This document shows positions 6,101-59,446 of a stretch of 64,000 nt of DNA, in pieces (position 1 is the stretch's first letter; each line of letters begins with the position of its first letter). The DNA is from Tubulanus polymorphus (lineage: Eukaryota; Animalia; Nemertea). A model generated the notes under the pieces. The model ran no database searches. It was not told where the DNA came from and saw only the letters and a program-made list of their open reading frames with translations. Where the stretch lies: the NCBI RefSeq assembly GCF_964204645.1, contig NC_134028.1, positions 19,661,653 through 19,725,652 of the forward strand, given 5' to 3'. A program made the position numbers and the translations under genes.

Positions 6101-9100
6101 CTACAATAATTCGCAGCCGTATTCCGGTCGGAGAGCATATTGTAACGGTCATGTTTGTGAGGTGATCGAGAATTCCAGGCTTGGCACGTTTTCCCGGATC
6201 GCACTTGATTCAAAGTTCCCCTGTATTCTCTACCCATCGTAGTCATTTTGCATTCTTTAACTGAAATTTGTCACGGCGTAGAATGTTAACTAAGAAATAT
6301 AACTACATTAACTAAACGAGAGTGCATTTGTTTGTCTGTTGTGGCCAGTGAATTATCCGAAAATATCTCTTTAACGCACAAATCGACATATAGAAACTTC
6401 AATTGTCATAGGAATCACTTATCGTGTGGAAATGATAAAATGAGGATGTTGTTTAGAGGTTCAGTTTTGGTAGGCAAAACAAGTTTTGCTGTCTTGCTTT
6501 CAGATGTCGTTATTGGTTGGCCACATGCAATGTCTTCAGAATAATAGTGTGCGTATGAAAGTAAGTAGGAGTCCAGGGACACCATACCCACTTGGAAAGT
6601 GGTTTCAAATGCTCAACAATCTAACAATTCCAATGGTCAACTCCCCTGGTGACCATATACAAAAACCAATGACCTGGAAACTCACCACAATCATAGAACA
6701 TCTGGCCCAAGTGTAGAATCCGGTTAAGTAGTTCCAGTACAAATGCTATATTGATATCCCTCCGCGAAAAGGAGTATATACGCTAGATGACTGAATGACT
6801 GGTTGATTGGATGACTGGACGACCGGTCGACTGGATGACTGGTTGACTGGATGACTGGATGACTGGATGACTGGTTGACTGGATGACTGGACGACCGGCC
6901 AACTGGATGACTGGACGACCGGCTGACTGGACGACTGGTCGACTGAATGACCAGCTGACTGGGCGACCGGCCGACTGGTCGACTGGATGACTGTATGATT
7001 GGAGGACTGGTCGACTGGCCGACTGGTCGACTGGATAACTATGATCGGAGGACTGGTCGACTGGCCGACTGGTCGATTCGATGACTGAATGACCGTGGTG
7101 ACCGGCCGACTAGATGACTGGATGACTGGGTGATCTGGGGACTGGTCGACTGGTCGAATGAGCAAGTAGGCATTTGTGTTATAGCCATGGAAAGTTCCAG
7201 ACCTGTTGCGCCTGGAGTTGTTGAATTCGTCCAAACAATAACTGGTAGTTTGGATAAAACGATCAAGTTTCTTCAGGATAACAATATAATTTGAAGCGCA
7301 GCTCTCACTGCATTTACTGCTCTTGTGATATGAACTGAAAGTTAACCTGTCGAATTGGGTTTGCGGAATATGTGCCAGTAAACAATCTGTCCGGAAAGGC
7401 TAATTTTTCTCGAATTCAAATGTCAAACTGCAAAATCTGGTTATGATAGTGTATTGTTTCGCGCTCGACCTGCAACAGTACTAGTGCCACGAACTATTAC
7501 CGAATGTTGGATTGAAAACGATCATGGAGTGGTCTCATCGTTTACAGGAGGTTTTATCCGTAACGGTAAAAAGCAAGCCGGTGCTTATGGGCGGTGAAAT
7601 CGAGGATGACGTCATCGAAACCGACGAGAGCCAATTTGGAAAGAAACGCAAGTACCACCGCGGCATAGCGTGCAAAAACATGGTTGGGTATTCGGGCTAG
7701 TTGAGCGTGGAACCCGTAACATCCATCTGGAAATAGTGAACGATAGGAGTGCAGCGACTTTGACCCCTATTATTCAGCGAACAGTAGCGCGTGGTGCCAC
7801 AATCTATTCGGACATGTGGGCATCATATGCAGGCCTTGACAATGTCGGTTACAAACATGGTACCGTGAACCATACAAAATCATTTAAGTCCGAAGAGGGT
7901 GTCGCCACCAATATGATCGAAGGTGTTTGGGGCAATGTGAAACAATAAGTGGTAGGCAGAAAAGGGTGTGTATCATCTATGTTGGGAAACTACTTAGACG
8001 AGTTCACATATCGATTCAGATTCGGGGGTGAACATGGCGATATATATGGTCAGATATTCACGGATATTGGTATTGTGTACCCCCACAATAGCGTGACAAC
8101 AATTCAATTGAATGACATGTATGCACATATTCGTCAATAGTGAATTCTTATTTACAATTTGTAACTGTAATGTGTTGTTATTTCGTTTTATTTCATCGGG
8201 ACCTTGCTACCAGGACACGTTCTAGTGTCGAGGGCATTATAATCAGTCGACAGAATTCAATGCACAGTAATGTCGAAATTTTCGCCGCAGTCTGTGCAGA
8301 AACTGTACAAGGCAGCGTTTTCAATTCAATTTGATTGGGAAACAATGCTTAGTAAGGAGTTATACGAGTACATGGAGGCAATGGAGAAAGCATGCAACTG
8401 TCACATGACTATGTCCCTTAGCGCGCTGATATCCGTGGTTGCGGCGTTAGTTGGACCGGAGACGAAGATCGTCCAGTCGGCCAGTCATCCAGTCGGCCAG
8501 TCATCCGGTCAACCAGTCATCCAGTCGGCCGGTCGTCCAGTCGGCCAGTCATCCACTCGGCCGGTCCTCCAGTCACCCAGTATACCATGTAAATAATGAA
8601 GAACCGAATCACTACCAACCTATCGAATATGTTCCTACACCTTTGCACTATTACTCCGTATTCTACACTTGGGCCGAACATCTCAGCAGCTACAATTTCG
8701 CAATTGATCGTGGTAACAAAATATGCACAGGTACGAATATAATATCGAAATACTAAGTTATTGTATTATTCAACGCCCCTGCGTATGAAAATAAAAACCA
8801 CAACAGGTGTCAGTTGTCCAAATGTGAGTTGAACTTTGCTTAAACTGTGGATAATTGACGAAGTGAAAATAAAACTAAATTGTTACCGTAGTATTATCAG
8901 AAGCCTGATTCAAAAAGGTTTTGTGAGTAAAAACATAGTTATACTACTGTGTCAATTGTCGCTGTGGCATTCATTCCCAGTTAATTTCAATCAAATTCTT
9001 AGCAACTTGCCCCTGATGATCCTGACCAAACACTGTGTCCGTGTTGGAGCGATAGTGGACATCTCACAATACAGAAAAGAAAAATAAGTCTGGAAGCTTT

Positions 9101-12100
9101 TCTTGAGCTTTACATTATTCCGACATTTTACTTCTTTGGGGAATACTGAAAAGTTCCTGAAGATGACTAATAGGATACAGTAAAATGTCAAATGAAGAGA
9201 AAACTCGAGAATTAATATTTCTTTTCTGTATTGTAGGATCTTTACCGCATTATGGCCGCAGACAGTTAACTATACTTTCAGCAACCTTTTAAGCTACTAG
9301 CCTCATGACTTCCACAGTTGTGCCAGGTTTCCCTTGACAATGACAGAGAATATACTTACCTGGACATATTTTTACGTCGCAGTATTCCCAACGTACCGCG
9401 GCATCAGTGGTATAACACCAGGGTCCTCCTGTTGTATTGTCGGGGTTCCTACAATAATTCGCAGCCGTATTCCGGTCGGAGAGCATATTGTAACGGCCAT
9501 GTTTGTGAGGTGATCGAGAATTCCAGGCTTGGCACGTTTTCCCGGATCGCACTTGATTCAAAGTTCCCCTGTATTCTCTACCCATCGTTGTCATTTTGCA
9601 TTCTTTAACTGAAATTTGTCACGGCGTAGGATGTTAACTAAGAAATATAACTACATTAACTAAACGAGAGTGCATTTGTTTGTCCGTTGTGGCCAGTGAA
9701 TTAATTATCCGAAAATATCTCTTTAACGCACAAATCGACAAACAGAAACTTCAATTGTCATTTGAATCACTTATCGTGTGGAAATGATAAAATAAGGATG
9801 TTGTTCGTACGTTCAGTTGTGGTAGGCAAAACAAGTTTTGCTGTCTTGCTTTCAGATGTCGTTATTGGTTGGCCACATGCAATGTCTTCAGAATAATAGT
9901 GTGCGTATGAAAGTAAGTAGGAGTCCAGGGACACCATACCCACTTGGAAAGTGGTTTCAAATGCTCAACAATCTAACAATTCCAATGTTCAACTCCCCTG
10001 GTGACCATATACAAAAACCAATGACCTGGACACTCACCACAATCATAGAACATCTCAACAGCTACAATTTCGCAATTGATCGTGGTAACAAAATATGCAC
10101 AGGTACGAATATAATATCGAAATACTAAGTTATTGTATTATTTAACGCCGTGCGAATGAAAGTAAAAACCACAACAGGTGTCGGTTGTCCAAAAGTGAGT
10201 TGAACGTTGCTTAAACTGTGGATAATTGACGTAGTGAAAATGAAACTAAATTGTTACCGTAGTATTATCAGAAGCCTGATTCAAAAAGGTTTTGTGAGTA
10301 AAAACATAGTTATACTACTGTGTCAATTGTCGCTGTGGCATTCATTCCCAGTTAATCTCAATCAAATTCTTAGCAACTTGCCCCTGATGATCCTGACCAA
10401 ACACTGTGTCCGTGTTAAAGCGATAGTGAACATCTCACAATACAGAAAAGAAAAATAAGTCTGGAAGCTTTTCTTGAGCTATACATTATTCCGACATTTT
10501 ACTTCTTTGGGGAATACTGAAAAGTTCCTGAAGATGACTAATAGGATACAGTAAAATGTCAAATGAAGAGAAAACTCGAGAATTAATTTTTCTTTTCTGT
10601 ATTGTGGGATATTTACCGCATTATGGCCGCAGACAATAAACTATACTTACAGCAAACTTTTTAGCTACTGGCCTCATGACAGAGAATATATTTACCTGGA
10701 CAACTTCTTACGTCGCAGTATTCCCAACGTACCGCGGGATCAGTGGTGTAACACCAGGGTCCTCCTGTTGTATTGTCGGGGTTCCTACAATAATTCGCAG
10801 CCGTATTCCGGTCGGAGAGCATATTGTAACGGCCATGGTTGTGAGGTGATCGAGAATTCCAGGCTTGACACGTTTTTCCGGATCACGCTTGATTCAAAGT
10901 TCCCCTGTATTCTCTACCCAACGTAGTCGTTTTGCATTCTTTAACTGAAATTTGTCACGGCGTAGGATGTTAACTCAGAAATACAACTACATTAACTAAA
11001 CAAGAGCGCATTTGTTTGTCCGTTGTGGCCAGGGAATTATCCGAAAATATCTCTTAAACGCACAAATCGACATACAGAAACCTTTCATTGTCATATGAAT
11101 CACTTATCATGAGGAAATGACAGAATGAGGATTTTGTTTGTAGGTTCAGTTTTGCTTTCAGATGTCGTTATTGGTTGGCCACATGCAATGTCATCAAAAT
11201 AATAATGTGCGTATGAAAGTAACTAGGAGTCCAGGGACACCATACATACTTGGAAAGTGGTTTCAAATGCTCAACAATCTAACAATTCTCAGTTCAACTC
11301 CCCTGGGGCCAGTTGCACAGTCGTGACTTAAGTCCAAAAGTGGTCTTAAATCTTAAGACTGGTCTTAAGTTGTTAGATTGGCTATAGAACTAAGTTGGTC
11401 TTAAACTGGTCTTAAATCTAAGTCATGACTATGCAACCGGCCCCTGGTGACCATATACAAAAACCAATGACCTGGAAACTCACCACAATCATAGAACATG
11501 TCAGCAGCTACAATTTCGCAATCGATCGTGGTAACAAAATATGCACAGGTACGAATATAATATCGAAATACTAAGTTATTGTATTATTCAACGCCCCTGC
11601 GTATGAAAGTAAAAACCACAACAGGTGTCAGTTTTCCAAAAGTGAGTTGAACTTTGCTTAAACTGTGGATAATTGACGAAGTGAAAATGAAACTAAATTG
11701 TTACCGTAGTATCATCAGCAGCCTGATTCAAAAAGGTTTTGTGAGTAAAAACATAGTTATACTACTGTGTCAATTGTCGCTGTGGCATTCATTCCCAGTT
11801 AATTTCAATCAAATTCTTAGCAACTTGCCCCTGATGATCCTGACCAAACACTGTGTCCGTGTTGGAGCGATAGTGGACATCTCACAATACAGAAAAGAAA
11901 AAATAAGTCTGGAAGCTTTTCTTGAGCTTTACATTATTCCGACATTTTACTTCTTTGGGGAATACTGAAAAGTTCCTGAAGATGACTAATAGGATACAGT
12001 AAAATGTCAAATGAAGAGAAAACTCGAGAATTAATATTTCTTTTCTGTATTGTGGGATATTTACCGCATTATGGCCGCAGACAATAAACTATACTTACAG

Positions 12101-14473
12101 CAAACTTTTTAGCTACTGGCCTCATGACAGAGAATATATTTACCTGGACAACTTCTTACGTCGCAGTATTCCCAACGTACCGCTGGATCAGTGGTATAAC
12201 ACCAGGGTCCTCCTGTTGTATTGTCGGGGTTCCTACAATAATTCGCAGCCGTATTCCGGTCGGAGAGCATATTGTAACGGCCATGGTTGTGAGGTGATCG
12301 AGAATTCCAGGCTTGACACGTTTTTCCGGATCGCGCTTGATTCAAAGTTCCCCTGTATTCTCTACCCAACGTAGTCGTTTTGCATTCTTTAACTGAAATT
12401 TGTCACGGCGTAGGATGTTAACTCAGAAATACAACTACATTAACTAAACAAGAGCGCATTTGTTTGTCCGTTGTGGCCAGGGAATTATCCGAAAATATCT
12501 CTTAAACGCACAAATCGACATACAGGAACCTTCCATTGTCATATGAATCACTTATCATGAGGAAATGACAGAATGAGGATTTTGTTTGTAGGTTCAGTTT
12601 TGCTTTCAGATGTCGTTATTGGTTGGCCACATGCAATGTCTTCAAAATAATAATGTGCGTATGAAAGTAACTAGGAGTCCAGGTACACCATACATACTTG
12701 GAAAGTGGTTTCAAATGCTCAACAATCTAACAATTCTCAGTTCAACTCCCCTGGGGCCAGTTGCACAGTCGTGACTTAAGTCCAAAAGTGGTCTTAAATC
12801 TTAAGACTGGTCTTAAGTTGTTAGATTGGCTATAGAACTAAGTTGGTCTTAAACTGGTCTTAAATCTAAGTCATGACTATGCAACCGGCCCCTGGTGACC
12901 ATATACAAAAACCAATGACCTGGAAACTCACCACAATCATTGAACATGTCAGCAGCTACAATTTCGCAATCGATCGTGGTAACAAAATATGCACAGGTAC
13001 GAATATAATATCGAAATACTAAGTTATTGTATTATTCAACGCCGTGCGAATGAAAGTAAAAACCACAACAGGTGTCAGTTGTCCAAAAATGAGTTGAACT
13101 TTGCTTACCTGTGGATAATTGACGTAGTGAAAATGAAACTACATTGTTACCGTAGTATTATCAGAAGCCAGATTCAAAAAGGTTTTTGTGAGTAAAACCA
13201 TAGTTATACTACTGTGTCAATTGTCGCTGTGGCATTCATTCCCAGTTAATTTCAATCAAATTCTTAGCAACTTGCCCCTTATGATCCTGACCAAACACTG
13301 TGTCCGTGTTGGAGCGATAGTGAACATCTCATAATACAGAAAAGAAAAATAAGTCCGAAAGTTCTTAACTAGGCAAACAAGTTTTGCTGTCTTCCTTTCA
13401 GATGTCGTTATTGGTTGGCCACATGCAATGTCTTCAGAATAATAATGTGCGTATGAAAGTACACCATACCCACTTGGAAAGTGGTTTCAAATGCTCAACA
13501 ATCTAGCAATTCCAATGTTCAACTCCCCTGGTGACCATATACAAAAACCAATGACCTGGAAACTCACCACAATCATAGAACATCTCAACAGCTACAATTT
13601 TGCAATTGATTGTGGTAACAAAATATGCACAGGTACGAATATAATATCGAATTACTAAGTTATTATATTATTCAACGTTCCTGCGAATGAAAGTCAAAAC
13701 CACAACAGGTGTCAGTTGTCCAAAAGTGAGTTGAACTTAACCTGTGGATAATTGACGTAGTGAAAATGAAACTACATTTTACCGTATTATGATCAGAAGC
13801 CAGAATCAAAGAGGTTTGTGAGTAAACAAATAGTTATACTACAGTGTCAATTGTCGCTGTGGCATTCATTCCCAGTTAATTTCAATCAAATTCTTAGCAA
13901 CTGGCCCCTGATGATCCTGATCAAACACTGTGTCCGTGTTGGAGCGATAGTAAACATCTCACAATAGAAAAGAGAAATAAGTCCGAAAGCTTTTCTTGAG
14001 CTATACATTATTCCAACATTTCACTACTTTGGGGAATACTGAAAAGTTTCTGAAGTTGACTTATAGGATACAGTAAAATGTCAAATAAAGCGTAATTCGA
14101 GAAAACCTTTCGGGCTTATTTTTTTCTGTATTGTAGGATCATTACCGTATTATTGCCCCTGATGGTTAACTTTACTTATAGCAAACCTTTAAACTACTGA
14201 CCTCATGACAGAGGATATATTTACCTGGACAACTTCTTACGTCGCAGTATTCCCAACGTACCGCGGGATCAGTGGTATAACACCAGGGTCCTCCTGTTGT
14301 ATTGTCGGGGTTCCTACAATAATTCGCAGCCGTTTTCCGGTCGGAGAGCATATTGTAACGGTCATGTTTGTGAGGTGATCGAGAATTCCAGGCTTGACAC
14401 GTTTTTCCGGATCGCGCTTGATTCAAAGTTCCCCTGTATTCTCTACCCATCGTAGTCGTTTTGCATTCTTTAA
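1..14473 (-). CDS. Multi-kringle protein gene (apolipoprotein(a)/plasminogen-like tandem kringle array), partial; continues past the window start and its 5' exons were not securely identified
   Basis: Eight copies of a 249-nt exon bounded by ttcag| and |gtaa(a/g)t on the minus strand: 14225-14473, 12144-12392, 10696-10944, 9360-9608, 6012-6260, 4641-4889, 3159-3407 and partial 1-57. Each encodes a full six-Cys kringle: ECKxTxxGREYRG...SGKTCQAW...NYCRNPD...PWCYTTD...RWEYCDV..C. Confidence 0.93.
105..1284. repeat. Compound (AAT)n / (AATGAA)n / (AATAATGAA)n microsatellite, about 1.2 kb
   Basis: Directly visible. Rare variants AACAATG (about 391 and 807) and AAACGAAA (about 471 and 887) recur about 416 bp apart, indicating an internal duplication. 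Confidence 0.97.
1285..2509 (+). mobile_element. 5'-truncated copy of the Merlin transposon at 6704-8675
   Basis: Near-identical to 7452-8675. It has ISXO2-type transposase ORFs 1345..1782 and 1783..1974 split by one TAA, and right TIR ATTCTACACTTGGGCC followed by GAACATCT. The left end is replaced by the microsatellite. Confidence 0.92.
3159..3407 (-). CDS. Kringle exon K1 (type A: ARSG...DPAVR...RSCP)
   Basis: 249 nt, AG/GT boundaries, open frame, matches ORF 3124..3384. Confidence 0.93.
3769..3906. mobile_element. 138-bp MITE (GGGCCAGTTGCA...TGCAACCGGCCC) with CTG TSD; further copies at 11306-11443 and 12754-12891, degenerate relatives at about 17490-17550, 45060-45201 and 56665-56790
   Basis: TIRs and 3-bp CTG duplication; the empty site (aactcccctggtgacc) is present in the other intron copies. 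PIF/Harbinger-like by TSD size (inference). Confidence 0.85.
4641..4889 (-). CDS. Kringle exon K2 (type B: VRSG...DAAVR...KICP)
   Basis: 249 nt, AG/GT boundaries, ORF 4570..4875. Confidence 0.93.
6012..6260 (-). CDS. Kringle exon K3 (type B)
   Basis: 249 nt, AG/GT boundaries, ORF 5941..6246. Confidence 0.93.
7187..8140 (+). pseudogene. Degenerate Merlin/ISXO2-like DDE transposase
   Basis: N-terminal CxxC...CxxC Zn ribbon, then [58 protein letters not shown]; several stops and frameshifts. Confidence 0.92.
8270..8472 (+). pseudogene. N-terminal fragment of a DUF3987-like gene inside the Merlin TIRs (duplicate at 2104-2306)
   Basis: MSKF...[17 protein letters not shown]...KACNC...[13 protein letters not shown] aligns by eye with the N-terminus of the minus-strand gene starting at 27068 (KIYKKAWKIKVPWSEIV...RAKNCPLDLLVGALLLITASL..GP). 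It is truncated at the subterminal repeats. Confidence 0.7.
9360..9608 (-). CDS. Kringle exon K4 (type B, appears identical to K2)
   Basis: 249 nt, AG/GT boundaries, ORF 9289..9594. Confidence 0.93.
10696..10944 (-). pseudogene. Kringle exon K5 (type A) with in-frame nonsense codon
   Basis: Same boundaries as the other copies, but the Arg CGA of NQARSG is TGA (plus-strand tca at 10883-10885). This explains its absence from the ORF track. Confidence 0.85.
12144..12392 (-). CDS. Kringle exon K6 (type A)
   Basis: 249 nt, AG/GT boundaries, ORF 12109..12369. Confidence 0.93.
14225..14473 (-). CDS. Kringle exon K7 (first of the array in transcription order)
   Basis: 249 nt, AG/GT boundaries, ORF 14172..14450; the upstream flank beyond 14480 is unique sequence. 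Confidence 0.93.
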
Positions 14474-14946
14474 CTGAATTTTTGGAAATATAAAATTTTT
14501 GGATTTAGTTAACTAGAAGATATTCACAATTAAAATCGCGGTATTTGAATAAATCCAATGGATAACACAGTCCCATTACCATAAAACGTACTATCGTTAT
14601 CCTGCGATAATGCGCATGACATCATAAACGACACGACCAATGGCGTGGCACACAGCGTTAGGAAATAACTCATCTGTAGTGATAGACACACGTGATCTAT
14701 TATTAGCGAATAACCCGTAGAAAGCCCGGTCGTTTGTTAGGCCGCAACTTTAGACCTTTCAAATCCATTGCTTATGAGACTGGAGTCCACGGGTAACATA
14801 ACTGTAGGAAGCTAAATTAATATGTAGGACCTTTTTAAGAAAAGCAATCAAGTTAAGAAACGAAGGCTCTTAACGCGTTAACGTCGTTTTCAACCCGCCC
14901 CTGGTGGCTACATTAGGAACCCAAAGTTCAATAGTAAGTTAATTAC

Positions 14947-14967
14947 CTTGGACCAAATTTCTATTGT
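14947..14967 (-). CDS. Candidate 21-nt phase 1-1 micro-exon upstream of the kringle array
   Basis: ctttgtag|ACAATAGAAATTTGGTCCAAG|gtaatt; phase compatible with the kringle exons. No independent support. Confidence 0.3.
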
Positions 14968-16052
14968 CTACAAAGTTAGAAACAATAAAATTAATCATAA
15001 ATAAATTAACCAACGCCTTTGAAATTGAAAAATTTAATTTTTTCAGGGTATTTGTGGCAATAGGTTGTCGAGTAAAACGTTGCTCAGAGAAAGCAGCCAC
15101 GGTCTTATGGCTTAATTAGGGTTGTGTGTAGGGTAGTACTTAAGAATTATGGCAACTCTAGTGATAATGATCATCGCTACACAATGACAAATATTAGAGG
15201 CACCAAAGGCCGAGTAAGCACCAGAAAAAAAAACATTTGTTCATCTGTAATACCTTAACGGTAATAACAATATTAAATATAGCTGATAAACAGCGATCGA
15301 CTACTGGTTAAAATGTTGTACTTGCAGGCGTACAAAGATTTCTTCGAAATTACTCTCATCAGTTCGTACGGGTATTTTGATGGAGGACCACCTAGGGGTA
15401 TACTTATACTTGATGTGGATCCATGTGGGCTACTGTGTACGAAAGTACCGATAGAACCATGTTTAGTCGAAACAACTTTGATGATAACAAAGAGCTTTCA
15501 CAATTCAAAATGCGAGCGTGCCGTGGTTCCAAGCAGTAACCACTCAGGCCGTTCAAAGTTGATATCTTGTTTCTCATTCAAACCTCTTTTCTTGATATGA
15601 CGAGGTAGGGCGAATTTTTTTATCATGAGCTTCTTTAAGATAAAAAAGTGGAAATCAACTTGTATTATCATATTTCCAAGGAGACGAGGGCGGGAGGTTT
15701 TTCAGAGTTTCGATCCAATGGTGGGCAGAAGCAAGACATGTTCATTAGCTTATGTTCCTTGTCTAAAACATCTTAACTGCACAATTTCAAACAAATGCAG
15801 TCTAAAATGTCATAGAATAGAATAGAACATGTTTTATTGCTCGACAAAAATGCAATTGCTTAGAGCACAGAAACAAAATCGAAGTATAGAAATTACAATA
15901 ATTAATGCGATTTACGTATAAACAGCTAATCAACAAATGATTAACATACATAGACGATAATACACACACATAGAAAAAACATTCAGAATTCATGATACAA
16001 CGAATTCGCTTAGAGGTATTTAGAAGCAGTTTTGATAAAGTTAGTACGTTGT

Positions 16053-16610
16053 TTAAGTTGTTTCCGCGATTTTGACAAGACCCGGTCTATGACGTAAGCG
16101 AGAGGTGTATCTTATTGCCTCAGTGACCACTGACACGTCATCTTGTTCGGCGGTCTTTTGGTCTTTGGGCCGTTCCGCTCCAACAGCGCGCAGCTTATCA
16201 AGTTCAGCCTGGTGAATTGTGTTGGCTCGCTCGATATGTACTATACGTGATTCTAGCTTGCCTATATTTGTACATTGATTGTCAATTTCCTCGCTGATCA
16301 GTCTAGCTTTTTGATCCATTTTGTTTGCACCTGTTTTAGTAACTCTCGCTTTAGCTTAGATATTTCAGATCGCACATAGCTACCTAGATCCTCTTGGCCT
16401 TTCTTTATTTGTCGGATTTCTTTTAGTAGATCGTACTTGTCACTTCTGTGGTAGAGTCAAAACCTTCACTCAACGTATCCTGTTCCTCTGCACCCTCAGA
16501 AGAGTTGTTTTCGTCACTTTCGTCTCCTCCACCTTTTTGTTGTTTTGCTTGGCGGTGAAGCACCTTCCGATCCTCGAGATCCAGCAGAGCTTTTTGATTT
16601 TCTTTTCATT
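16053..16610 (-). mobile_element. Probable non-LTR retrotransposon ORF1 (coiled-coil) remnant
   Basis: Frameshifted heptad-rich ORF (EEIDNQCTNIGKLESRIVHIERAN) after a basic N-terminal segment; no diagnostic domain. Confidence 0.4.
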
Positions 16611-17849
16611 TAACGTTTAGGAGCGATGCTGACGTACGTCCGTTCAGTTCAGTGTCCAGAGTGGAGAATATATAGTCTTCAGGGTCACATGCCTAATCAG
16701 TTTGTGAATGGTTCCAGTTCACCATGAAGCATTAAAATGTTCAATAATTGCATTACTAATACGCTGTACTAACTATCGATGAAAACAAAATGCATAAAAA
16801 GGTTACTTTATAATTCATCATTTTTCAATGTAGTCCATTTATTGGGTAGAAATACTCTAAATACTGGTGGTGTGTTTACATTACAATAACTTAAATTTGT
16901 TCTTATTTTTCACCATATTTAGTTTTTATTTTTGTTCTAATTTCATTATGTTATGTTCAATTTCTTTTGAAACATCAACTAATTCTTTATTTCATGTTGT
17001 TTTTTATGGTTTTATTCGGTTATTTATTGATGCCAAGAAGATCTTTCTGTCTCCCATTTATAGAGGAACAAATGTGTCCTGGTATGAAAACGCAATTCAG
17101 GAATTAATTTTATGAAATATCAGGTGACTTTCAACATCAATGAATCAATGAATTAGTGATGTATGTTAAACCGACACCTTATACGTGTATTATTAAAATC
17201 AGGCCGCTTTCAGACGAATCCTTCATTCTATCGGTATCGGCAGTTCTTCGATAATTGATTCGAAATTACATTTCAAAGGATTCTGATATGTATCGTTGAA
17301 ACTTAAGTACTTTCTATACTCATTTAATATACAAATCTTTTATCTATTAAACAAAATAAAGCTATTTCAATAATATCATAAAGCTAATTTTATTAGGCAA
17401 TTCAAGAAATTAAATGAATTTGAGTTCGCTGAAACTCTTCGCTCTAAAATATATTTGTACGCTTATTGGGGATATCACATACACATAAACAGACCAGTCT
17501 TAAGATTTAAGACCACTTTTTGACATAAGTCACGACTGTGCAACTGGCCCCTGGTATATCACAAAAACTAAGTAAGTCATACTCCCTGACTTGACAATGA
17601 CCAAAAACGGCACTTACCTTTGGCTCCCGAGACTTGTTACTCCGAACGCGCCTCTGGTGTTTGCTTATATTGACCTCCGAGAAAATGTTATCTCCGATTA
17701 CCAACATCTGTTTCTCATAGATTGCGATAACTACAGCCTATGTTTCATCATTAATTTTATCAATTATTCTTGACAAGTTATTATCACGATAATAACTTAA
17801 GTTATGGGTTTTGAGATTACATAACGGCAACGTGGAGGTGTACATCTAA

Positions 17850-19737
17850 AGGCTGGCTTATGTCGACAAGCAACGCGACGCCTACCGACGCAGCTGGATA
17901 TTTTATCGCCGATAAGCGGCAACTAGCGGCCGCTAGCGAGAGGCCGCCAGTTTCTGCTCTATCGGTTCGACATAAGCCGGCTTGCGACGGCGACCCGACG
18001 CCTACTGACTCGTCGCAAGCCGTATCCGGCTAGTTGGCCATGTTCTTCTCGGGCCTACGGTAGGCGAACAGTTTCTCGCAACCGACAGCTCATATGCAAC
18101 GCGACGGAACTGAGCGTAGGGGTTCTAGCCAATAAGAGACCGCATATTACACAGTACAAATTATGACCGCTAGTTAGCGTCGTTCGTAATCAGTCATAAA
18201 CTTTCAAATTCTAGTAGTTCAAAAAGTAAACCAAACCTTCATCATGGCAGATGACTGGACCAAGGAGGAGAAACGAAATTGGTAGAATCATGGTGTGGGT
18301 GGCCATCTTTATATGATGTCGCTAGCACATTGTATTCAAAACAGAATCAGAAAAATAAAGATCTAAAAGAAATATATTTCCCAATAATTCAAAATAATTC
18401 AAATTTATTCTCAAAAATGCTTATCACATCTGAGCCGTTGCAGTTGCCAGTAATCGTAACCGACATAGCAGGGGAACAACTGGGAGGATCTCGTAAGTAA
18501 TTAGATAAATTCAAAATTAGATTCATTGAACAAATATATCAATTGCTGAGCGGGCCGCGTAGCGGGGCGTGAAGTAATCGATATATTTTTGAAAATTATA
18601 TCTCAGCAACAAATTTAGTGTATGGATGACAAAATAAAATTGATGATATTACTATGATTAATCAAATATTATCGAATGAAACATATTTAATTACTCAACG
18701 AATAGACACTTTAGATAATAGCGCTGAAAATCCTAGAACATTTAATACAGTTTTATGTCATAAAGGTAATTTAGATGAAATAATGATAAATATTCTTGAA
18801 ACTCCTTTTAATGGATGAAATGATGATTTAATACTTTCTAAAGTTTATAATGATATAATAAACTAAAGAATTGAAAAATGACAATTATATTATTTTAATT
18901 TTGATGATAAACAAATTATTTACATTGAAAATTCATCAAATATTGGTATTGAATGTGATTTAGATAATGAATTTAAAAAGTTTAATCCTAATGAAAAGTG
19001 TATTGTTATTGCGGAAGTAAATATTTAAGATCACATAAATCAAAGCATTATCAAACAATTATCAAATTATCAAACGTATCAATTATGGAAAGAATAATAA
19101 TTCTATATTGAAATAAGATTAAGGTGTATGTTTCAAATATATAATAGTTTAATATTTTGAAATTAGTTAACGAATAACTGTTAAATTGTTCAAATGTTAA
19201 ATTGTTAGACTGTTGAAATGTTAAATTGTTAGACTATTAAAATGTTAAATTGTTAGACTGTTAAAATGTTAAATTGTTAGACTGTTAAAATGTTAAATCG
19301 TAAGATTGTTAAAATGTTACATTGTTAGACTGTTAAAATGTTAAATTGTTAGACTGCTAAAACGTTACATTGTTAGACTGTTAAAATGTTAAATTGTTAG
19401 ACTGTTAAAATAATAAATTGTTATATATAACATATCATATATGTAATTATTGGATAAGTCTTGTTCTTGTTCTATATTCGAGGTTTAAAGGTTGGGAATT
19501 TAGAAAAACATGAAAATATTACCAATTTTTAATAATAATTGGAATAAAATTAAAAAATATATCGATTGCTGATTGGGCCGCGTAGCGGGGCGTGAAGTAA
19601 TCGATATATCTTTAGTCGACCTAAGTTGCTGCGAATCGGAGCGCAGTCGACATAAGCTGGGCTGCGATCGCGGTTGCTCTCAGTTGCGTCGGTAGGAGTC
19701 GGTAGGCGTCGCATTGCTTGTCAACAAAAGCCAGCCT
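17850..19737 (+). mobile_element. PIF/Harbinger derivative carrying a MADF-domain fragment, interrupted by a 1.1-kb insertion
   Basis: TIRs AGGCTGGCTTATGTCGACAAGCAACGCGACGCCTACCGAC...GCCAGCCT with TAA TSD. A frameshifted WTKEE..LVESW...PSLYDV....YSKQ..K.K.LKEI MADF motif lies at about 18244-18375. Confidence 0.85.
18494..19612 (+). mobile_element. Unclassified AT-rich insertion with a degenerate ORF, a 24-bp tandem repeat and flanking hairpin direct repeats
   Basis: About 53-bp direct repeats at 18534-18586 and 19557-19609. The ORF remnant NYISATNLV...NQILSNETY is homologous to ORF 24103..24546. (ACTGTTAAAATGTTAAATTGTTAG)n at about 19177-19422. Confidence 0.7.
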
Positions 19738-21580
19738 TAAATCTGTATGGTGGTCGGTCAGGGTCAAAGCACTCATCTTGCATATAATGCATATTGTTCT
19801 AACACTGATTATCTCCACTAGATAATGCACCACTGTTGTGGTTGCGAATCTCTACCCGTGATTTTGTGAGGGGTTACTGTGTTCTAGGCCGGATCTTCAG
19901 TCCTGGTTCTTGCTTTTTATAATGCTCCCGTATATAATTTGAACGACTCCTTAAGTTATCTATTCATATATATTCTCTCCTAACCAGATGTGTACAATCT
20001 TCCTTCCTCGAGCTCCCTCATTTCTAAAACCTCCCATCTCTTTTCTCCAGCCTCCTTCTCTCTCTTAAACATCTTAAGCTTTCGAAAACTCCCTAAACTA
20101 TAAACGCTCCATTTTTAAAATATTTTTCTCTTTAGTAACGTGTGCAGGCCCTTTTCCACACATGGCTTGGAATTCATAGATTGTGACGTATTCATACGTC
20201 ACAACATTCCTCCAATCCATGTATGGAGTGATGACGTATATACATTGGATAATATACCGATCTTGCACAGGTAAAAATACTTACTGAACATGAGTTTTTC
20301 TGGTGTCGATATTCAATTATTTAATTTCCATTTTGAGGGACACAAAAAACAGCTTTTTTTGGAGAATGCAGCGTATGCAGAAAATCGACGGTCAGCCACT
20401 CGCGCGCTCTTTGCTCTTGAATCAACCGGTGGCCACGCGTGTTTCTAAGAAGATATTTTTACGAATATAGTATCAACAATATCCTCAGATAAAACAGTAT
20501 TTTCAGTGAAAAATCATAAATTGTATCACAATAAATGAAAAAGTTACAGCCAATGACACGAAATTACCTATATTTTTTAGGCACCTTCCTAAAAGTGACG
20601 TTAATCTTTTTAAACTGTAATGGTGTTCGATTGTTGCAGCCGGGAAATATAAAATAAAAACCATCAGAAAATAGAAATTGTCACCTTTCTAACGATTAAT
20701 AAGTTTTTGTGCCAATAGAGGGATGGACAACAATTCATCGCGCTAGAGGTTTTAGTTTAAAAATGTTAAATTATGTCCAACAATGCGGGACCACCTCAAA
20801 ATGGAGCCTGGTAACTGGATACTTCCCTATTCCATTGAAATAGAAATTTGGTCCCATTCCAACAAATTAGAAACCGCCGGTTTGGTTTGAATCCGATACT
20901 AGTCAGTTCAAGTTAACTGTTATTGATTAGTCTCATAGTGCCTGTTCATATCGACTTAATTCATAGGGACTTATTGTGATATAATGCATCAACGTAAATG
21001 TATCAGTCACGCGTATCAGGTTCGAAACCCCGACAGTAAACAATTTTAGCTTTAGCTTTAATATTAGTTTTGGTTTTAGTTTGGTTTTAGTTTAATTATC
21101 GGGACAACAGATATATGAAATATCAAGTTTTTTAAAAAGAAAAACAACAAAAATATACACATGTATTTTCAATCAATTATCAAAATCATGAGACATCCTT
21201 AATGGCAGCACTTAAACCTCATTACTACGTAGGTGCTTTAACTTTTAGTATTGTTTGTATTTGTATTTCTTAAGTTCCATAAGTTGCATGTTGATGATGT
21301 TAAAAGTACTTTGGCAACCTTGGCAAGATTTTAAGAGATTCAACTAAACTTTTGCACTTAGATAAAAGCAGATGGCACTACTGCGCCCCTACTGGCCGAT
21401 TGAAAAACGTTGTCTAATTCTTATTGTATTGCAGGTAAACCCGGTTAAAACGTTTGGCTCAAGTCCATTAAAGCATTAAATAGTTCCAGCAGAGACTTAT
21501 CACATTGGACTGGTATTTGGAATTAATCCGCCAATATTGGACTGATTGAATCTTACGACATTACGCCATAGGGACGCGCG

Positions 21581-21650
21581 AACATACCGACATACCGACG
21601 AACCGACGAACCGACATACCGACAAACCGACATACCGACAAACTGACATT
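21581..21650. repeat. 8-bp tandem repeat (ACCGACAT/ACCGACGA)n
   Basis: Directly visible; possibly a subterminal array of the second Merlin-associated element. Confidence 0.8.
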
Positions 21651-22300
21651 GGCTTATAACTTATGATTAATAGCAATAACATACTGAATGTTCGGCGAAT
21701 TATGTATCTTTGGGTTTCACACGTTTAAAAGGTTTTCCAGTTTTGTCATTGTATAAATGCTTTTAGTATAAGTCTATGAATTGAAACGATTATAAATAAT
21801 ATCGGCCATAATATCGACGAAGAGCGACCACCCATAATAAGTTATCAAATCATTGGATAATCTTCACATATTTTAGGTAAGCAATTACGGTTACTTGATC
21901 AGGTTCAAGATTCATCCGTCTCATCCGTGTCGTCGACCTGCGTTAACATTTTCATGGCCTCGGACATACTACTCGTATCATTAAACTTTGCCCAATATAC
22001 GTCTAAAGTTGTGTCTGTGCATCTGAACAGACTGTCTTTTTCGAAAAGTGCGTCTGGCAATTTCTTGAAGAAAAATAGTGTTGATCTTCCAGCTCCTGCT
22101 TGTTTTAGTGTTTTCAAGTGACCCAGGTTTTTCCTGCTCAGCTCCTGCAGACTTACTGGAATAGAGAGACGAAGTATATCAGATAAATGTGCATGTGGTG
22201 GCTTTTGTTGAATTTGCATTCCATTATATATAAGCCAGCCAATTAATGAATATTCTTTTGATGTTATAGAAATTATCCTTTTTATCGGACGAGTTTAGCC

Positions 22301-23050
22301 GATTACACTTATATAAAGTGGCCGGGATCGAGGGGCCGGGAGTGCCCGTGTATTACACTTATATAAAGTGGCTGGGATCGAGGGGCGGGGTGTGTCCGTG
22401 TATTACACTTATATAAAGTGGCTGAGATCGAGGGGCCGGGTGTGTCCGTGTATTACACTTGTATAAAGTGGCTGGGATCGAGGGGCCGGGTGTGTCCGTG
22501 TATTACACTTATATAAAGTGGCTGAGATCGAGGGGCCGGGTGTGTCCGTGTATTACACTTATATAAAGTGGCTGGGATCGAGGGGCCGGGAGTGCCCGTG
22601 TATTACACTTATATAAAGTGGCTGGTATCGAGGGGCCGGGTGTGTCCGTGTATTACACTTATATAAAGTGGCTGGTATCGAGGGGCCGGGAGTGCCCGTG
22701 TATTACACTTATATAAAGTGGCTGGTATCGAGGGGCCGGGTGTGTCCGTGTATTACACTTATATTAAGTGGCTGGTATCGAGGGGCCGGGTGTGCCCGTG
22801 TATAACACTTATATAAAGTGGCTGGGATCGAGGGGCCGGGTGTGTCCGTGTATTACACTTATATAAAGTGGCTGGGATCGAGGGGGCGGGTGTGTCCGTG
22901 TATTACACTTGTATAAAGGGGCTGGGATCGAGGGGCCGGGTGTGCCCGTGTATTACACTTATATAAAGTGGCTGGGGTCGAGGGACCGGGTGTGCCCGTG
23001 AATTACACTTATAGATAGGGGCTGAGATCTAGGGGCCGGGTTAGCGTGTA
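22301..23050. repeat. 50-bp minisatellite, about 15 copies
   Basis: Unit TATTACACTTATATAAAGTGGCTGGGATCGAGGGGCCGGGTGTGTCCGTG at exact 50-bp spacing. Confidence 0.97.
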
Positions 23051-23097
23051 TTAGGCTGCATAGTCTATTATGAAATATTATTTCATAATTTCTACAG

Positions 23098-23795
23098 GGA
23101 TCCAAACTGTCGTTGTGTTCTGCTCTGTTGATCGTGTATGGATTTGCAATTGATCTACAGATTTTTCAAGTGCAGAAATTGGAACCTAAGTTGAACGTGA
23201 AGACCATCATGAAATGGTATGACAGGTTGCGTGAAGTTTGTAGCGATTTTCTAAGGCGTAATCCTGTCATCATAAAAGGTGATGTCGCAAAATCAATTTC
23301 AGAAATTGATGAATCACTTTTCGGAAGAAGACGCAAACAAAGGAAACGGAAAATAGGACACATGGGTGTTTGGAATCATTGAACGTGGAACACGGAATGT
23401 TGTAATTTCATGTGAACCGTAGAAATCGTGAAACTTTATTGCCGATTATAAAGAAGCACGTTGCAAGTGGCTGCACAATTTATTCAGATGGTTGGTCGGC
23501 ATATTCGACGTTAAATGAAACGTATAACCGTGGTGTTGTTAATCATTCCAAAGAGTTCAAATCTGTCGAAAATGTTTGCTCGAATGGCATTGAAGGTATG
23601 TGGGGTATGATGAAAGGTAGGATCAAGAAAATAAAGGGCGTTGTCCACCAAAGAATTGGAATTTATATTGATGAATTTGTGTGTAGGTATAGATTTGGAC
23701 ACTCAAATGGAGACATTTTTGGGCATTTTTCTGTCATAGGGCCTATAGGGCAACTAAAAAGAATGGAAAAATTGAGTCGGCCTAACTTACATTGA
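23098..23795 (+). pseudogene. Second, divergent Merlin/ISXO2-like transposase (frameshifted)
   Basis: GSKLSL...IVYGFAIDLQ...KWYDRLREVC...EIDESLFGRRRK...WVFGIIERG...IYSDGWSAY...VNHSKEF...SNGIEGMW...YIDEFVCRYRF. It starts after a tttctacag acceptor-like site; no 5' exon or TIRs were found. Confidence 0.9.
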
Positions 23796-24145
23796 ACATT
23801 TGAAGCTGTGACTGCTCGTCGGCAAGATTTTTCTGGATCGTACGGAGAGTAACCAGTGGCCCACGGGAATGAATAGCAACTCTCCAGACTTTTGCGTCGA
23901 AACTCTTTATTGGTTTGTTCATTTTGATGGTTTTTGTGTCATTTCTTGAAAAGCTTTTAACTGCCTAAAATAATCATAAATTTGTTCATGTTTTCATGTC
24001 AAATGAAGGTTACCAGGTTATATTCTACTGTATTTGTATGTTTAAAAGAAAATAAATTTTAATTTAGGCCTACCTGTAAAATCACATCTTTTTGTTGAAC
24101 AATTACATGATATAACGTTTTGGCGGCGATGACGGAAGTAATAGG

Positions 24146-25071
24146 CAAATATTTAAGATCACATAAATCAAAATCAAATCATTGTAATCTTTAGAAAGTA
24201 TTATATTACTTTTTCTTTCATTGAAAGGAGTTTTAAGAATATTAATTATGTTTTCATCTAAAGTTCCTTTATAATTAAAAACTGTATTGAATATTTTAGG
24301 ATTTTTAGCGCCGTTATTAAAAGTATCAATTAGTTCAGTAATTGAATATGTTTCATTTGATAATATTTGATTAATTACAGTAATATTTTCAATTTTATAA
24401 TGTCTTGCGGACACTAAATTTGTTGCTGAAATATAATTCTTAATGTTAAACTGTGAAAATGATTTATTGGTTTCATTGATTTCGATTTTAAAGTTGGGTT
24501 CTTCTTCTTTCTTCATTTTTATAACAAAATTTTTGTTAAAACTCATTCAAATATAAATATTCAATGTTTTAAATATGAATAATTTCACTCGTTAATTACT
24601 CATTACTTTTTATATTAAAAATCAAGAATTTAACACATATAAATATAAATATTCACTGTTTTAAATATGAATTATTTCACTCGTTAATTACTCGTTACTT
24701 TTATGTTTAAAAATAAGAATCTAACATATATAAATATAAATATTCACTGTTTTAAATATGAATTATTTTACTCGTTAATTACTCGTTGTTTTTATACTGA
24801 AAATAAGAATTTAACATATATAAATATAAATATTCACTGTTTTAAAACACTCACACTTTACTCACACTTTTTATGTTTAAAAATTGATTTTAATTCTAGC
24901 AACTCGTTAATTACTCGTTACTTTTTCTCACACATTTTATGTTTGCACTTTACTCACGCTTTACTCACACTTTTTATATTGAAAATTGATTTTTTATTAT
25001 TCAAAATCTATATTTGATCTTATTTTTCTAGATTATTATGCTAACACTTTACTCAATATGAATATTTTAAG
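24146..25071 (-). mobile_element. AT-rich insertion with a 147-aa ORF and about 91-bp tandem repeats; relative of 18494-19612
   Basis: Flanked by the 9-bp direct repeat AGTAATAGG (24137-24145, 25072-25080). ORF 24103..24546 is clearly homologous to the ORF remnant at about 18590-19030. Confidence 0.7.
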
Positions 25072-25221
25072 AGTAATAGGGAATAAGTTGTTTCACATCA
25101 AAGGTTGAAGGTGCTCATAAAAAATGAAAAAATAAATTCGAGCTTGCGAGAATTTATTTTTTCATTTTTTATGAGCTTGACCTTTCGACCTTTGGTATGA
25201 AACAACTTATTCCCTATTACT
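25072..25221. mobile_element. 150-bp palindromic MITE
   Basis: TIR AGTAATAGGGAATAAGTTGTTTCA...TGAAACAACTTATTCCCTATTACT. The compound insert 24137-25221 is flanked by GACGGA/GGCGGA (6-bp TSD, one mismatch), and its removal restores the DUF3987-like frame GLES(A/V)IAAKTLY. Confidence 0.8.
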
Positions 25222-26404
25222 GGCGGATTCTAATCCAATCGTTTTATTGAATCGGAATTCATTTTCTTTGTCCGTTAAAAAGTGATGTAGGTATTGACTT
25301 TGGATACTTAAGATGACTGCAATCCTTAGAATGTGCATAGCATCTTTTGAACTTACGAGACTCGTTTCTTCAATATTTTCATCTGGAACAAACATGATTT
25401 TGAGTGCAACTGAAGACACGAACCCGTATTTTAATAATGGTTATTTTGAAATAGCAGGAGACTTGAAATCCTGAGTTAAATTTTTTGAGAATTCTGTCAT
25501 TATGCAAACTGAATTCAAATGAACAAATAGTGGTAATTTATATATAAACTTTCTTTATCAATGATTTTTTCAAACCTTCTACATGAAGAGGTTTTAAGAT
25601 ACATACCGTCACTCGAGTGTGAATCGTACATTCGGTTCATATACATTACAAATTCGCCACGAATTTTGTTGAACGCGGTTGTTGCCTCTGGGGAATGTTT
25701 TAAAACCGTTTCCTTAGAATTTGAAATCATTCTAAATTGCCTCGAATATGGGAATGAAACTTTCTAATCCTGATTGTGACAACAGTTTATAAATATCTTT
25801 ACAAACGCTCGACGGTTGGATCATTGGTTTGGAGACGATGAACAAGAACCTATCCCAGAATCCGTTTCACCACATTGTTGACTTGCCCCGTTAATCATTT
25901 CCTAAAACATGGGTTCTGGTTGAATGAACACAAGCATAGATCTTGCCCTCTTGTTCCTGTTGACAATGTTGATGCATCGCAATGTCCACCCCATAAAATA
26001 TACTTTATTAAGAAAACTCCTTTCTGATTCGTCATTACGTTGTTTCGTATTAATTTCGGCCATCAGCTTCGCACCTTCGTCCTCGCTTATCAAGCCATAC
26101 CCTCGGTTTTCTTTTTGATGGTTTTGTATTCCAGCGGAGGTGTATTTACCGATCAACAATGATTATCACTTTTTTGCATAAACCCTATTGGCTGGTATTA
26201 CGATCTCATCAAATGCTCGCGATTTACCTCTTCCACACCAGCAAAGACATGCAATAAACGTGTTTAGGGTTGATGTAAAATCACCGTCTTCCGTTTCAGC
26301 TACACATCCAGGCCCTGTCACTGTCAGACTTGCTGTTATTAGTAGCAATGCCCCAACTAAAAGATCGAGTGGACAGTTTTTTTGCCCTTGAGTAGGTTAG
26401 TAGC

Positions 26405-26952
26405 CTAATGTCTATTTATTAATGAATGAGACCTGTTTTTCTTGGATATTTTGCTTACTTTTTGGGGTACATACCTCATTTATGTCTTAACAGAATGCCA
26501 AAAATCGCGGACAACAACTGAATATCCGATATATTTCCAGTTCTGTACCATTTAGATGGATTGGCAAAAAGACTCCTTAAGTCCAGTTGAATGAGAGAGA
26601 AAATCCTCCATTTTGTGAAATTTCTTGAATTTTTACATTGTCACCATGCCTACGACATGAAGTTATTTTTCTTGTGGGGTCTCAACAACTAAATCAGGGT
26701 GGCGTAGGCATGGTAACAATGTTCAAATCCAAGAAATTTGACAAAATGGAGGATTTTCTCTCTCATTCAACTGGACTTAAGGAGTCTTTTTGCCAATCCA
26801 TCTAATTGGTACAGAACTGGAAATATATCGGATATTCAGTTGTTGTCCGCGATTTTTGGCATTCTGTTAAGACATAAATGAGGTATGTACCCCAAAAAGT
26901 AAGCAAAATATCCAAGAAAAACAGGTCTCATCAATTAATAAATAGACATTAG
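26405..26952. mobile_element. Foldback element: about 250-bp near-perfect inverted arms with about 45-bp spacer, inserted near the 5' end of the DUF3987-like gene
   Basis: 26405-26657 is the reverse complement of about 26701-26952. Confidence 0.9.
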
Positions 26953-27799
26953 ATCCTTAACCATTCTAGTTCCTGTTCGTTGACAATTTCTGACCATGGT
27001 ACTTTAATTTTCCATGCTTTTTTATATATTTTAGCAATATCGGAGCTGCATAGAATTGATCTCGACATCTCGGCAATTGTCTTTGATCTGACTAAACAGT
27101 TTAATCAGTTTAATTACAAATTCAATCAAGATATGTATCCATAGTAACACTAATGACAGTGGCTGAAAGAAACTATGGACGCAGTGTGCTATAACAATAG
27201 AATCTTCGGTATCACACGAATTACACTATAGGTAATGAATTCAATTCGCAAATTCTTAGTTCTAAGATTCTAAGAGACGTATTTTGTAAGCTATAGTAAA
27301 AAGTGATAAGAATTAAAAGTTATTCACATACTCTTAATGTTGAGTTGACTGGTTTACTGGCTCGATTCGTGAAGTTTACATTGATCCAAGAAGTGGCAAC
27401 GTTACAGCACCCACGCCTCATTGATGCCTCGTTTGGGAGGTTTTATTCTACAAGTTCCTGTGGCTTCCGATTCACCCTGGCCGTGGATTTAAAAAATCAT
27501 GTCCTTATGTGCCACAGTTTTTCAAGAAATCAATCATCATGTGCAACAGTTCACTCGGGCTCTTTCTGTTCTATTGATAAATAAATCGACTTAAAGTTAC
27601 GGGTCTTGTCGTCTTATCCTTCCAACCAAGATATTCGACGTTTCTTTCAGATGTTTCCTCAATCTATGACCACAATAACGACCGAATCTTATCTATTTTT
27701 CTTCTTATCTGGTAAAAATTTATTCTAAAATCTACGATTAAAAACATACCCGGGATAGAAATCATTTTAAAAACAAACAGCATCGACTGCTGCTGCAAT

Positions 27800-59446
<31,647 letters not shown>

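Follow-up and report, generated by a model that had tools for sequence, protein, structure and literature searches.

The 64,000-nucleotide (nt) stretch of the Tubulanus polymorphus genome examined here (contig NC_134028.1, positions 19,661,653 to 19,725,652, of assembly GCF_964204645.1), which is referred to in its entirety as the window, harbors two loci at which a transposase of the Merlin type adjoins a gene of the DUF3987 family. Both loci, designated element 1 and, at locus 2, element 2, are probably decayed Merlin transposons which carried, besides the transposase, a second gene encoding a DUF3987-family ATPase, a predicted ring helicase resembling MCM which would assist transposition. 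The evidence for this reading was drawn from the window, from protein databases, and from four public contig sets (runs X1 to X4), which derive from one study and no more than two samples and represent partial sets.

Ends and gene content of element 1

The window was searched for 14-nt inverted ends lying between direct repeats of 8 or 9 bp, and nine candidates with up to three mismatches were recovered. Two pairs of terminal inverted repeats (TIRs) and target site duplications (TSDs) in the window were free of mismatches, one lying within an AT microsatellite and the other delimiting element 1, in which GGCCCAAGTGTAGAAT occurs at 6704 on the plus strand and at 8675 on the minus strand, with GAACATCT flanking both sides. 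Contigs representing the empty site, in which position 6695 is joined to 8676 through eight letters compatible with either side, were present in all four runs. The target of element 1 is a small repeat of very high depth, and the empty sites may represent further copies of this repeat instead of alleles; in either case, the joints fix the ends of the element and its duplication. With its TIRs, 8-bp TSD, and empty site, element 1 is a genuine Merlin insertion, as had been claimed in an earlier, sequence-only reading of the same DNA (here called the original prediction).

In keeping with Merlin elements, element 1 possesses a DDE_Tnp_IS1595 domain, GG-initial TIRs, and an 8-bp TSD (8 or 9 bp being characteristic), whereas it departs from the single-gene organization of canonical Merlin/IS1595 elements in that a second gene is situated between its TIRs. 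The transposase gene is interrupted by several stops and frameshifts, its D, D, and E motifs remaining visible, and other contigs lack some of these breaks. Subterminal arrays of 8-bp units are found on both sides, and the left one likely constitutes protein-binding sites.

The second gene begins with an ATG located 129 bp past the transposase stop and comprises 67 unbroken codons, which run into the right 8-bp array. Pairwise BLASTP of this fragment (8270 to 8470) against the separate N-terminal pieces of locus 2 gave nothing significant (no match or an E value of 1.4). This null result is superseded, because two further tests proved significant. When the N terminus of locus 2 was bridged across a miniature inverted-repeat transposable element (MITE) which has inserted there, the fragment attained a score of 63 (shuffles, 21.8 +/- 3.9, with 0 of 5,000 as high); furthermore, a profile of 38 homologues, built from matches of at least 215 amino acids (aa) in a search with the degraded locus-2 core after the removal of one spurious long match, singled out the fragment with an E value of 1.4e-21 among 2,738 window segments. 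It also matches 72 of 139 collected proteins, the best at 49% over 61 aa. At the level of sequence, the fragment is a true homologue, corresponding to the 5' end of a gene of the DUF3987 family. The original prediction was therefore borne out in placing the start of a second gene within the TIRs, and its expectation that this start would resemble the locus-2 protein failed for the single pieces and held for the MITE-bridged N terminus. Element 1 is most simply regarded as an internal-deletion derivative that has lost most of its helicase gene, the cutoff of which coincides with the start of the right subterminal repeats.

A partial copy of element 1 at 1285 to 2509 is, by its sequence, a segmental duplicate and no independent insertion, and it was counted once together with element 1. 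Directly in place of the 5' part of this copy lies a 1.2-kb low-complexity AAT/GAA repeat (106 to 1286). Element 1 itself is located within a small high-copy repeat of one unit of a tandem array (2510 to 14480), the units of which measure approximately 1.4 kb and each contain a presumptive kringle-domain exon. Three runs of sample S2 lacked cover across 8228 to 8449 of element 1, which is neutral given the partial nature of the contig sets, and two S2 contigs diverge from the element at 8035, with approximately 300 differing letters.

A decayed helicase gene and a nested transposase at locus 2

At locus 2, the helicase gene occupies the minus strand (27068 to 21905). Colinear matches to a full-length helicase profile built from five sequences (511 positions) were given by ten segments located between 27104 and 21908, which together extend over profile positions 7 to 497; two of these ten have E values of 0.03 to 0.04, and three out-of-order window segments also matched. 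The original prediction had described a full-length spliced homologue at 21905 to 27068, and the colinearity and the four motifs named therein agree with that description, yet the gene is a pseudogene, broken by frameshifts, stops, and two later insertions (the MITE and a 1.1-kb insertion). The first exon additionally contains sensor-1-like and arginine-finger-like motifs, labels which we assign by analogy to MCM. The last exon, which was compared with five homologues, was equaled by 0, 0, 0, 1, and 49 of 3,000 shuffles, and it is judged genuine on this basis. Element 2 probably died through point changes and the two later insertions.

Two introns of the helicase gene remain (24073 to 23965 and 23790 to 22156), and both match, by eye, two introns of a homologous locus, L002, in protein position and phase. 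Because these positions and phases are common to L002, the transposase of element 2, which is found within the last intron, sits in an old intron. Part of this transposase (23406 to 23792) matches PF12762 with an E value of 4e-18, and the same check, put forward in the original prediction, was likewise passed by the transposase of element 1 (Table 1). The claim that a distinct Merlin transposase lies at 23098 to 23795 within the helicase gene thus stands, with the corrections that it is antisense, that it occupies the last intron, and that its N-terminal 65 or so codons went undetected. The latter were not found in 21456 to 22310, 23040 to 23110, or 27070 to 29400 (best scores of 34 and 30, against 95th percentiles of 39 and 36), and a cysteine-rich hint at approximately 22180 to 22300 was not significant as the N terminus of the transposase. 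The transposase stop and the helicase exon have 5 nt in common, which leaves no room there for a Merlin end within the intron.

A Merlin-like sequence at 21456, which was missed in the original prediction, is likely to be the left end of element 2; it is situated outside the helicase gene and 5' of the transposase, the same side as in element 1. Its match to the left end of element 1 (25 of 38 positions) was equaled by 2 of 300 shuffles across the window from 9401 on and by none of 2,000 local shuffles. A contig containing the unique flank stops at 21483, and the summed depth of bin 21402 to 21702 climbs to approximately 9,300, summed contig depth not being equivalent to copy number. Contigs also join the 21456 end directly to the minisatellite of the last intron (21550 to 22820, 21594 to 22808, and 21647 to 22947), as is expected of short non-autonomous derivatives. 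On the opposite side, a TIR-like remnant at 29302 that faces locus 2 represents a candidate right end, for which no matching TSD was seen when it was paired with 21456, while likeness to one other copy (contig X2-13) ends at 27258. Neither the inverted-end scan nor the comparison of TIRs in the window found a paired GG-initial right TIR with an 8- or 9-bp TSD at locus 2.

As regards the two insertions, the MITE (26396 to 26952) is a 548-bp near-perfect palindrome, and contigs without the MITE point to a TAG duplication of 3 bp and to a MITE end slightly beyond the palindrome. The AGTAATAGG-ended insertion is AT rich and of high depth, occurs at both 24137 to 25221 and 18594 to 18854, and contains a 91-bp tandem repeat and a 147-aa open reading frame (ORF) without a firm Pfam match. 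On the minus strand at 27803 to 28192, upstream of where the helicase gene starts, lie two stretches free of stops and in line with each other (54 and 75 aa); these are repeated in run X4 and have no Pfam match, the 75-aa stretch having no Atlas match either. The minus-strand ORF at 27803 to 28027 was considered as a third gene and was not counted, having no Pfam or Atlas match.

Association of the two genes

Each of the two helicase loci in the window borders a Merlin transposase, and each of the two transposase loci borders a helicase gene. The two transposases are 40 to 54% identical over three longer blocks and give no blastn match to each other. The two helicase genes likewise share no DNA similarity and were sisters in none of 200 bootstrap trees of the ATPase, from which it follows that the fragment in element 1 was not taken from family 2, to which element 2 belongs. 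Contig X4-25 covers 23097 to 23997, encompassing transposase and helicase exon, and contains 35 differing letters plus 24 gap letters, whereas flank contigs X2-14, X2-15, X3-21, and X3-23 exhibit 0 to 1 differing letters in 233 to 382 bases and others 3 to 4. Since X4-25 is approximately 4% divergent and the flank contigs of its sample are near-identical, it likely represents a paralogous, second copy of family 2 with identical nesting. The summed depth in run X1, a weak indication, was similar in the transposase bins (108 and 118) and the helicase bins (83 to 179), single flank contigs being at 17 to 31. It is considered quite likely that a two-gene Merlin architecture exists in two diverged families within this genome; the original prediction of a two-gene Merlin lineage with an accessory nucleoside triphosphatase (NTPase) is upheld to that extent, by the two families and the likely further copy of family 2.

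A number of observations weigh against this reading. The pairing was observed in this one genome, the ATPase tree comprises 69 alignment columns with a long locus-2 branch, and the genes are arranged in tandem in element 1 but antisense-nested at locus 2. Element 2, with no identified right end, TSD, or transposase 5' part, may be rearranged, and L002 holds the identical last intron without a transposase. Merlin sequence was present in none of 134 helicase proteins, and the two metagenome loci recovered lack a transposase, though at 1.3 and 1.8 kb both are too short to bear on linkage. In the published Merlin survey (PMC8101967), "DUF3987" occurs in none of the 11 supplement files, two alignment files of which are unreadable, and the protein file holds no relevant motif match. 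The transposase search returned two relatives; related-locus scans yielded the two short metagenome loci and one weak match among prokaryote genomes, and no relative of either gene in viral contigs.

Some of these points would suit a different account, according to which the helicase gene is part of some other mobile element or constitutes neutral cargo, element 1 having caught a 200-bp piece of it by chance and a Merlin fragment having landed in a helicase intron at locus 2, to be copied along thereafter. The differing gene orientations, the lack at locus 2 of both a right end and the 5' part of the transposase, and the transposase-free last intron of L002 all speak for such cargo or chance, as does a mussel gene model, P0108, in which the helicase is joined to an unrelated C-terminal part. 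We nevertheless regard this account as unlikely, given that the overlap of the transposase stop with the helicase exon leaves no space for a Merlin end within the intron, that the Merlin-like end at 21456 lies outside the helicase gene, that the fragment in element 1 opens with the start codon of the gene itself and continues without a break in the proper frame, and that helicase and Merlin transposase adjoin at both window loci.

Identity and predicted role of the second protein

A word-based protein search with the degraded locus-2 core yielded no matches; in a further search, 90 representatives were matched by this core at an E value of 0.001 or lower. When compared with PF13148 (DUF3987), as had been advised in the original prediction, the window pieces gave weak matches below the curated cutoff (E values of 0.043 and 0.0045), whereas 13 of 15 scanned proteins, the intact homologues among them, exceeded it, the other two being a spurious long match and a fragment. 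Named homologues derive from mussels (a 22-member cluster), a ribbon worm (two loci), a clam, and a sea anemone. Their catalytic motifs are conserved, and the mussel cluster and the two ribbon-worm loci are suggestive of mobile-gene behavior. No primase domain was detected in the scanned homologues or in 17 scanned window pieces. In mussel gene model P0108, the first 339 aa of the helicase are fused to the unrelated tail, which has no Pfam match and whose motifs, in our estimation, resemble a Ulp1-type protease; this tail may be a pointer to another transposon type beside the helicase.

A structure model of the mussel homologue P0105 (predicted local distance difference test score, 85) found its best match in MCM (Z score, 14.9; root mean square deviation, 4.4; 272 aligned), with BrxL (13.8), MCM8/9 (13.8), ComM (10.9), and Cch (9.9) as further fold matches, BchI also being listed; residues 410 to 501 match winged-helix proteins. 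In Foldseek searches with the same model, the top PDB rows were occupied by MCM subunits and the top viral rows by phage primase-helicases and DUF3987 proteins. TnsC, IstB, and MuB were absent among the matches listed in these fold searches. P0105 is thus predicted to possess an MCM-like AAA+ core with Walker A and B motifs and a C-terminal winged helix, as is characteristic of superfamily 6 (SF6) helicases. DUF3987 proteins are described as SF6 helicases that are distantly related to MCM and carry a C-terminal winged helix (PMC4889955), and the bacterial PriCT-DUF3987 protein AgaPH is described as an oligomeric 5'-to-3' helicase (PMC11724360). Of the two roles offered for the NTPase in the original prediction, helicase-like or TnsC/IstB-like, the former is favored by the MCM match and the SF6 class.

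Given the two-gene architecture, we lean somewhat towards a role in unwinding, by analogy with these helicases. The transposase would bind the ends and the 8-bp arrays and would nick and join the ends, whereupon the helicase would be loaded onto the junction, nicked or branched, and use ATP to unwind the DNA, its polarity being 5' to 3' if it is like its one tested bacterial relative. Unwinding would release the element or allow copy-out, the analogous job in bacterial insertion sequences falling to host replication proteins. We infer the oligomeric state, the activity, the loading site, and any benefit of the helicase. Two points weigh against such a role. Only 67 helicase codons were left in element 1 when it moved, or while it persisted, and the Merlins described to date are one-gene elements (PMC8101967), such that the helicase is unneeded in cis and perhaps altogether. 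Moreover, the fold model was obtained for a mussel homologue without a known transposase partner.

The AAA+ partners of bacterial DDE transposases act as target remodellers, and it is conceivable, though quite doubtful, that the pairing is real but that the ATPase works in the manner of IstB, MuB, or TnsC, polymerizing on and bending target DNA and recruiting or licensing the transposase with no unwinding. The C-terminal winged helix would fit duplex binding, no primase domain is attached, and Cdc6/Orc1 appears further down the fold lists (Foldseek rank 16; Z score, 6.5), all of which would accord with remodelling. The top structural matches are, however, MCM-clade helicases, and DUF3987 proteins are classed as SF6, and one of them unwinds DNA (PMC4889955, PMC11724360).

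A very improbable alternative holds that the helicase acts after the jump, driving branch migration during sister-chromatid repair of the empty donor site, whereby the donor would be restored and copy number would rise. Repair and branch-migration roles belong to MCM8/9 and ComM, which are among the fold matches (Z scores of 13.8 and 10.9, respectively), and a helicase of this kind would account for one-gene Merlins still moving. The MCM2-7 rows score equal or higher, however, so that the fold cannot separate these roles. A broader form of the preferred unwinding scheme, which we hold to be unlikely, would have animal transposons of several superfamilies adopt a phage-derived MCM-like ring helicase for replicative transposition (nick, unwind, and copy out) and not for plain cut-and-paste. 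Helicase-bearing Merlins would then be old and widespread, with the family 2 transposase antisense within the conserved last helicase intron.

Features of the window

The coordinates of the features of both loci are provided in Table 1. Elsewhere in the window, an 827-aa ORF at 48748 to 51510, which we take to be a look-alike of the start of a BEL/Pao retrotransposon (gag, protease, and reverse transcriptase), is flanked by a 194-bp perfect direct repeat (48646 to 48839 and 51317 to 51510) and looks internally deleted. Exons with ankyrin repeats are located on the minus strand at 32999 to 41156 and possibly form part of a TRPA-like channel gene. Related dispersed repeats at 17840 to 18500, 19600 to 19740, and 35800 to 36230 occur in both orientations and probably represent another non-autonomous DNA transposon family.

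Table 1. Features of elements 1 and 2 and their surroundings (positions within the window)
Feature	Position	Strand	Basis or remark
Partial element 1 duplicate (3' 1.2 kb)	1285..2509	+	99.7% identical; copied along with tandem kringle-exon array
Left 8-bp TSD, GAACATCT	6696..6703	+	Inverted-end scan; partner at 8676-8683
Element 1 left TIR	6704..6719	+	16 nt perfect; 26/38 over longer stretch
Element 1 left subterminal array, 8-bp units, 46 copies	6786..7153	+	Tandem-repeat content
Element 1 Merlin/IS1595-type DDE transposase, broken	7187..8140	+	PF12762, E 7e-23
DUF3987-family helicase gene, first 67 codons	8270..8470	+	Profile, E 1.4e-21
Element 1 right subterminal array, 8-bp units, 13 copies	8469..8574	-	Inverted relative to left array
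Element 1 right TIR	8660..8675	-	Inverted-end scan
Right 8-bp TSD	8676..8683	+	Inverted-end scan
Likely left end of element 2	21456..21493	+	GG start; 25/38 identical to element 1 left end
Element 2 subterminal array, 8-bp units, 8.5 copies	21582..21649	+	Tandem-repeat content
Last helicase exon, predicted winged-helix region	21905..22155	-	Profile, E 8.7e-7
50-bp minisatellite, 14.8 copies	22302..23041	+	Within last helicase intron, upstream of transposase
Element 2 Merlin transposase, frameshifted	23098..23795	+	Antisense in last helicase intron (22156-23790)
Second-last helicase exon	23791..23964	-	Profile, E 1.3e-5
End of long first helicase exon, past 1.1-kb insertion	24074..24136	-	E 0.04, colinear
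High-copy insertion with AGTAATAGG ends, breaking the helicase gene	24137..25221		6-bp flanks, one base different
Long first helicase exon with frameshifts and stops	25222..27068	-	Walker A, Walker B, profile matches
Palindromic MITE with 253-nt arms, in helicase gene	26405..26952		MITE-free joint 26382 to 26950 in 3 of 4 runs
TIR-like remnant facing locus 2, candidate right end	29280..29302	-	14 bases identical to element 1 TIR

Relation to described systems and implications

Element 1 shares with Merlin and IS1595 (IS1016) elements (PMC8101967) the DDE_Tnp_IS1595 domain, GG termini, an 8-bp TSD, tandem repeats within the ends, and longer TIRs that are imperfect, while locus 2 shares the domain and has one likely end; the occurrence of several diverged families in one genome is a further likeness. 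Both loci differ in the second gene, for an AAA+ helicase, the IS1595 family being described there with a single transposase gene, and the perfect TIR of element 1 measures 16 nt, compared with the 24 to 462 bp quoted for Merlin; the words "helicase" and "ATPase" do not occur in the main text of that survey (PMC8101967). In a literature search by title and start of abstract, which did not extend to Repbase, Dfam, or most subscription papers, no description emerged of a Merlin element that carries an MCM-like or DUF3987 gene. Because of this scope, and because some Repbase Merlins are 10 to 14 kb long, a catalogued or unremarked case is possible.

As in IS21 (IstA/IstB), Mu (A/B), and Tn7 (TnsB/TnsC), each element pairs a DDE transposase with a separate AAA+ ATPase gene; the ATPases of those bacterial systems are target remodellers and not helicases, whereas the one described here is closest to the MCM clade. 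Among eukaryotic transposons, AcademH carries a RecQ-like helicase. Like AcademH and KolobokH, the present loci represent a DDE superfamily lineage equipped with an accessory helicase, which in one Kolobok case lies on the complementary strand, but the helicase of KolobokH is RecQ, in contrast to the MCM-related SF6 protein (PF13148) that accompanies a Merlin transposase (PF12762) here (PMC10045372, PMC9587614). The loci consequently fall outside the combination of RecQ helicase and Academ or Kolobok transposase, displaying PF12762 and PF13148 instead. With the DUF3987 (PF13148) SF6 helicases of phages and bacterial islands, such as AgaPH, the second protein shares the Pfam match, Walker A and B motifs, winged helix, and top viral fold matches (PMC11724360, PMC4889955). 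Unlike them, it is encoded with spliceosomal introns and beside a DDE transposase and has no primase or PriCT domain, and tblastn placed it at a distance from plasmid and phage sequence, with no plasmid match and one weak phage match.

Merlin is currently considered a simple transposon with one gene, and DUF3987 helicases are assigned to the replication modules of phages and bacteria. To this the window contributes two deeply diverged families and two gene layouts from one genome, both copies being dead. If the proposed reading is true, the SF6 helicase would represent a new class of accessory protein for eukaryotic DDE transposons, and many multi-copy invertebrate genes labelled "uncharacterized" or "RAD54" would be transposon genes. 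With such elements, moreover, the question of why helicases are carried by some eukaryotic transposons could be addressed in a simple system of two proteins.

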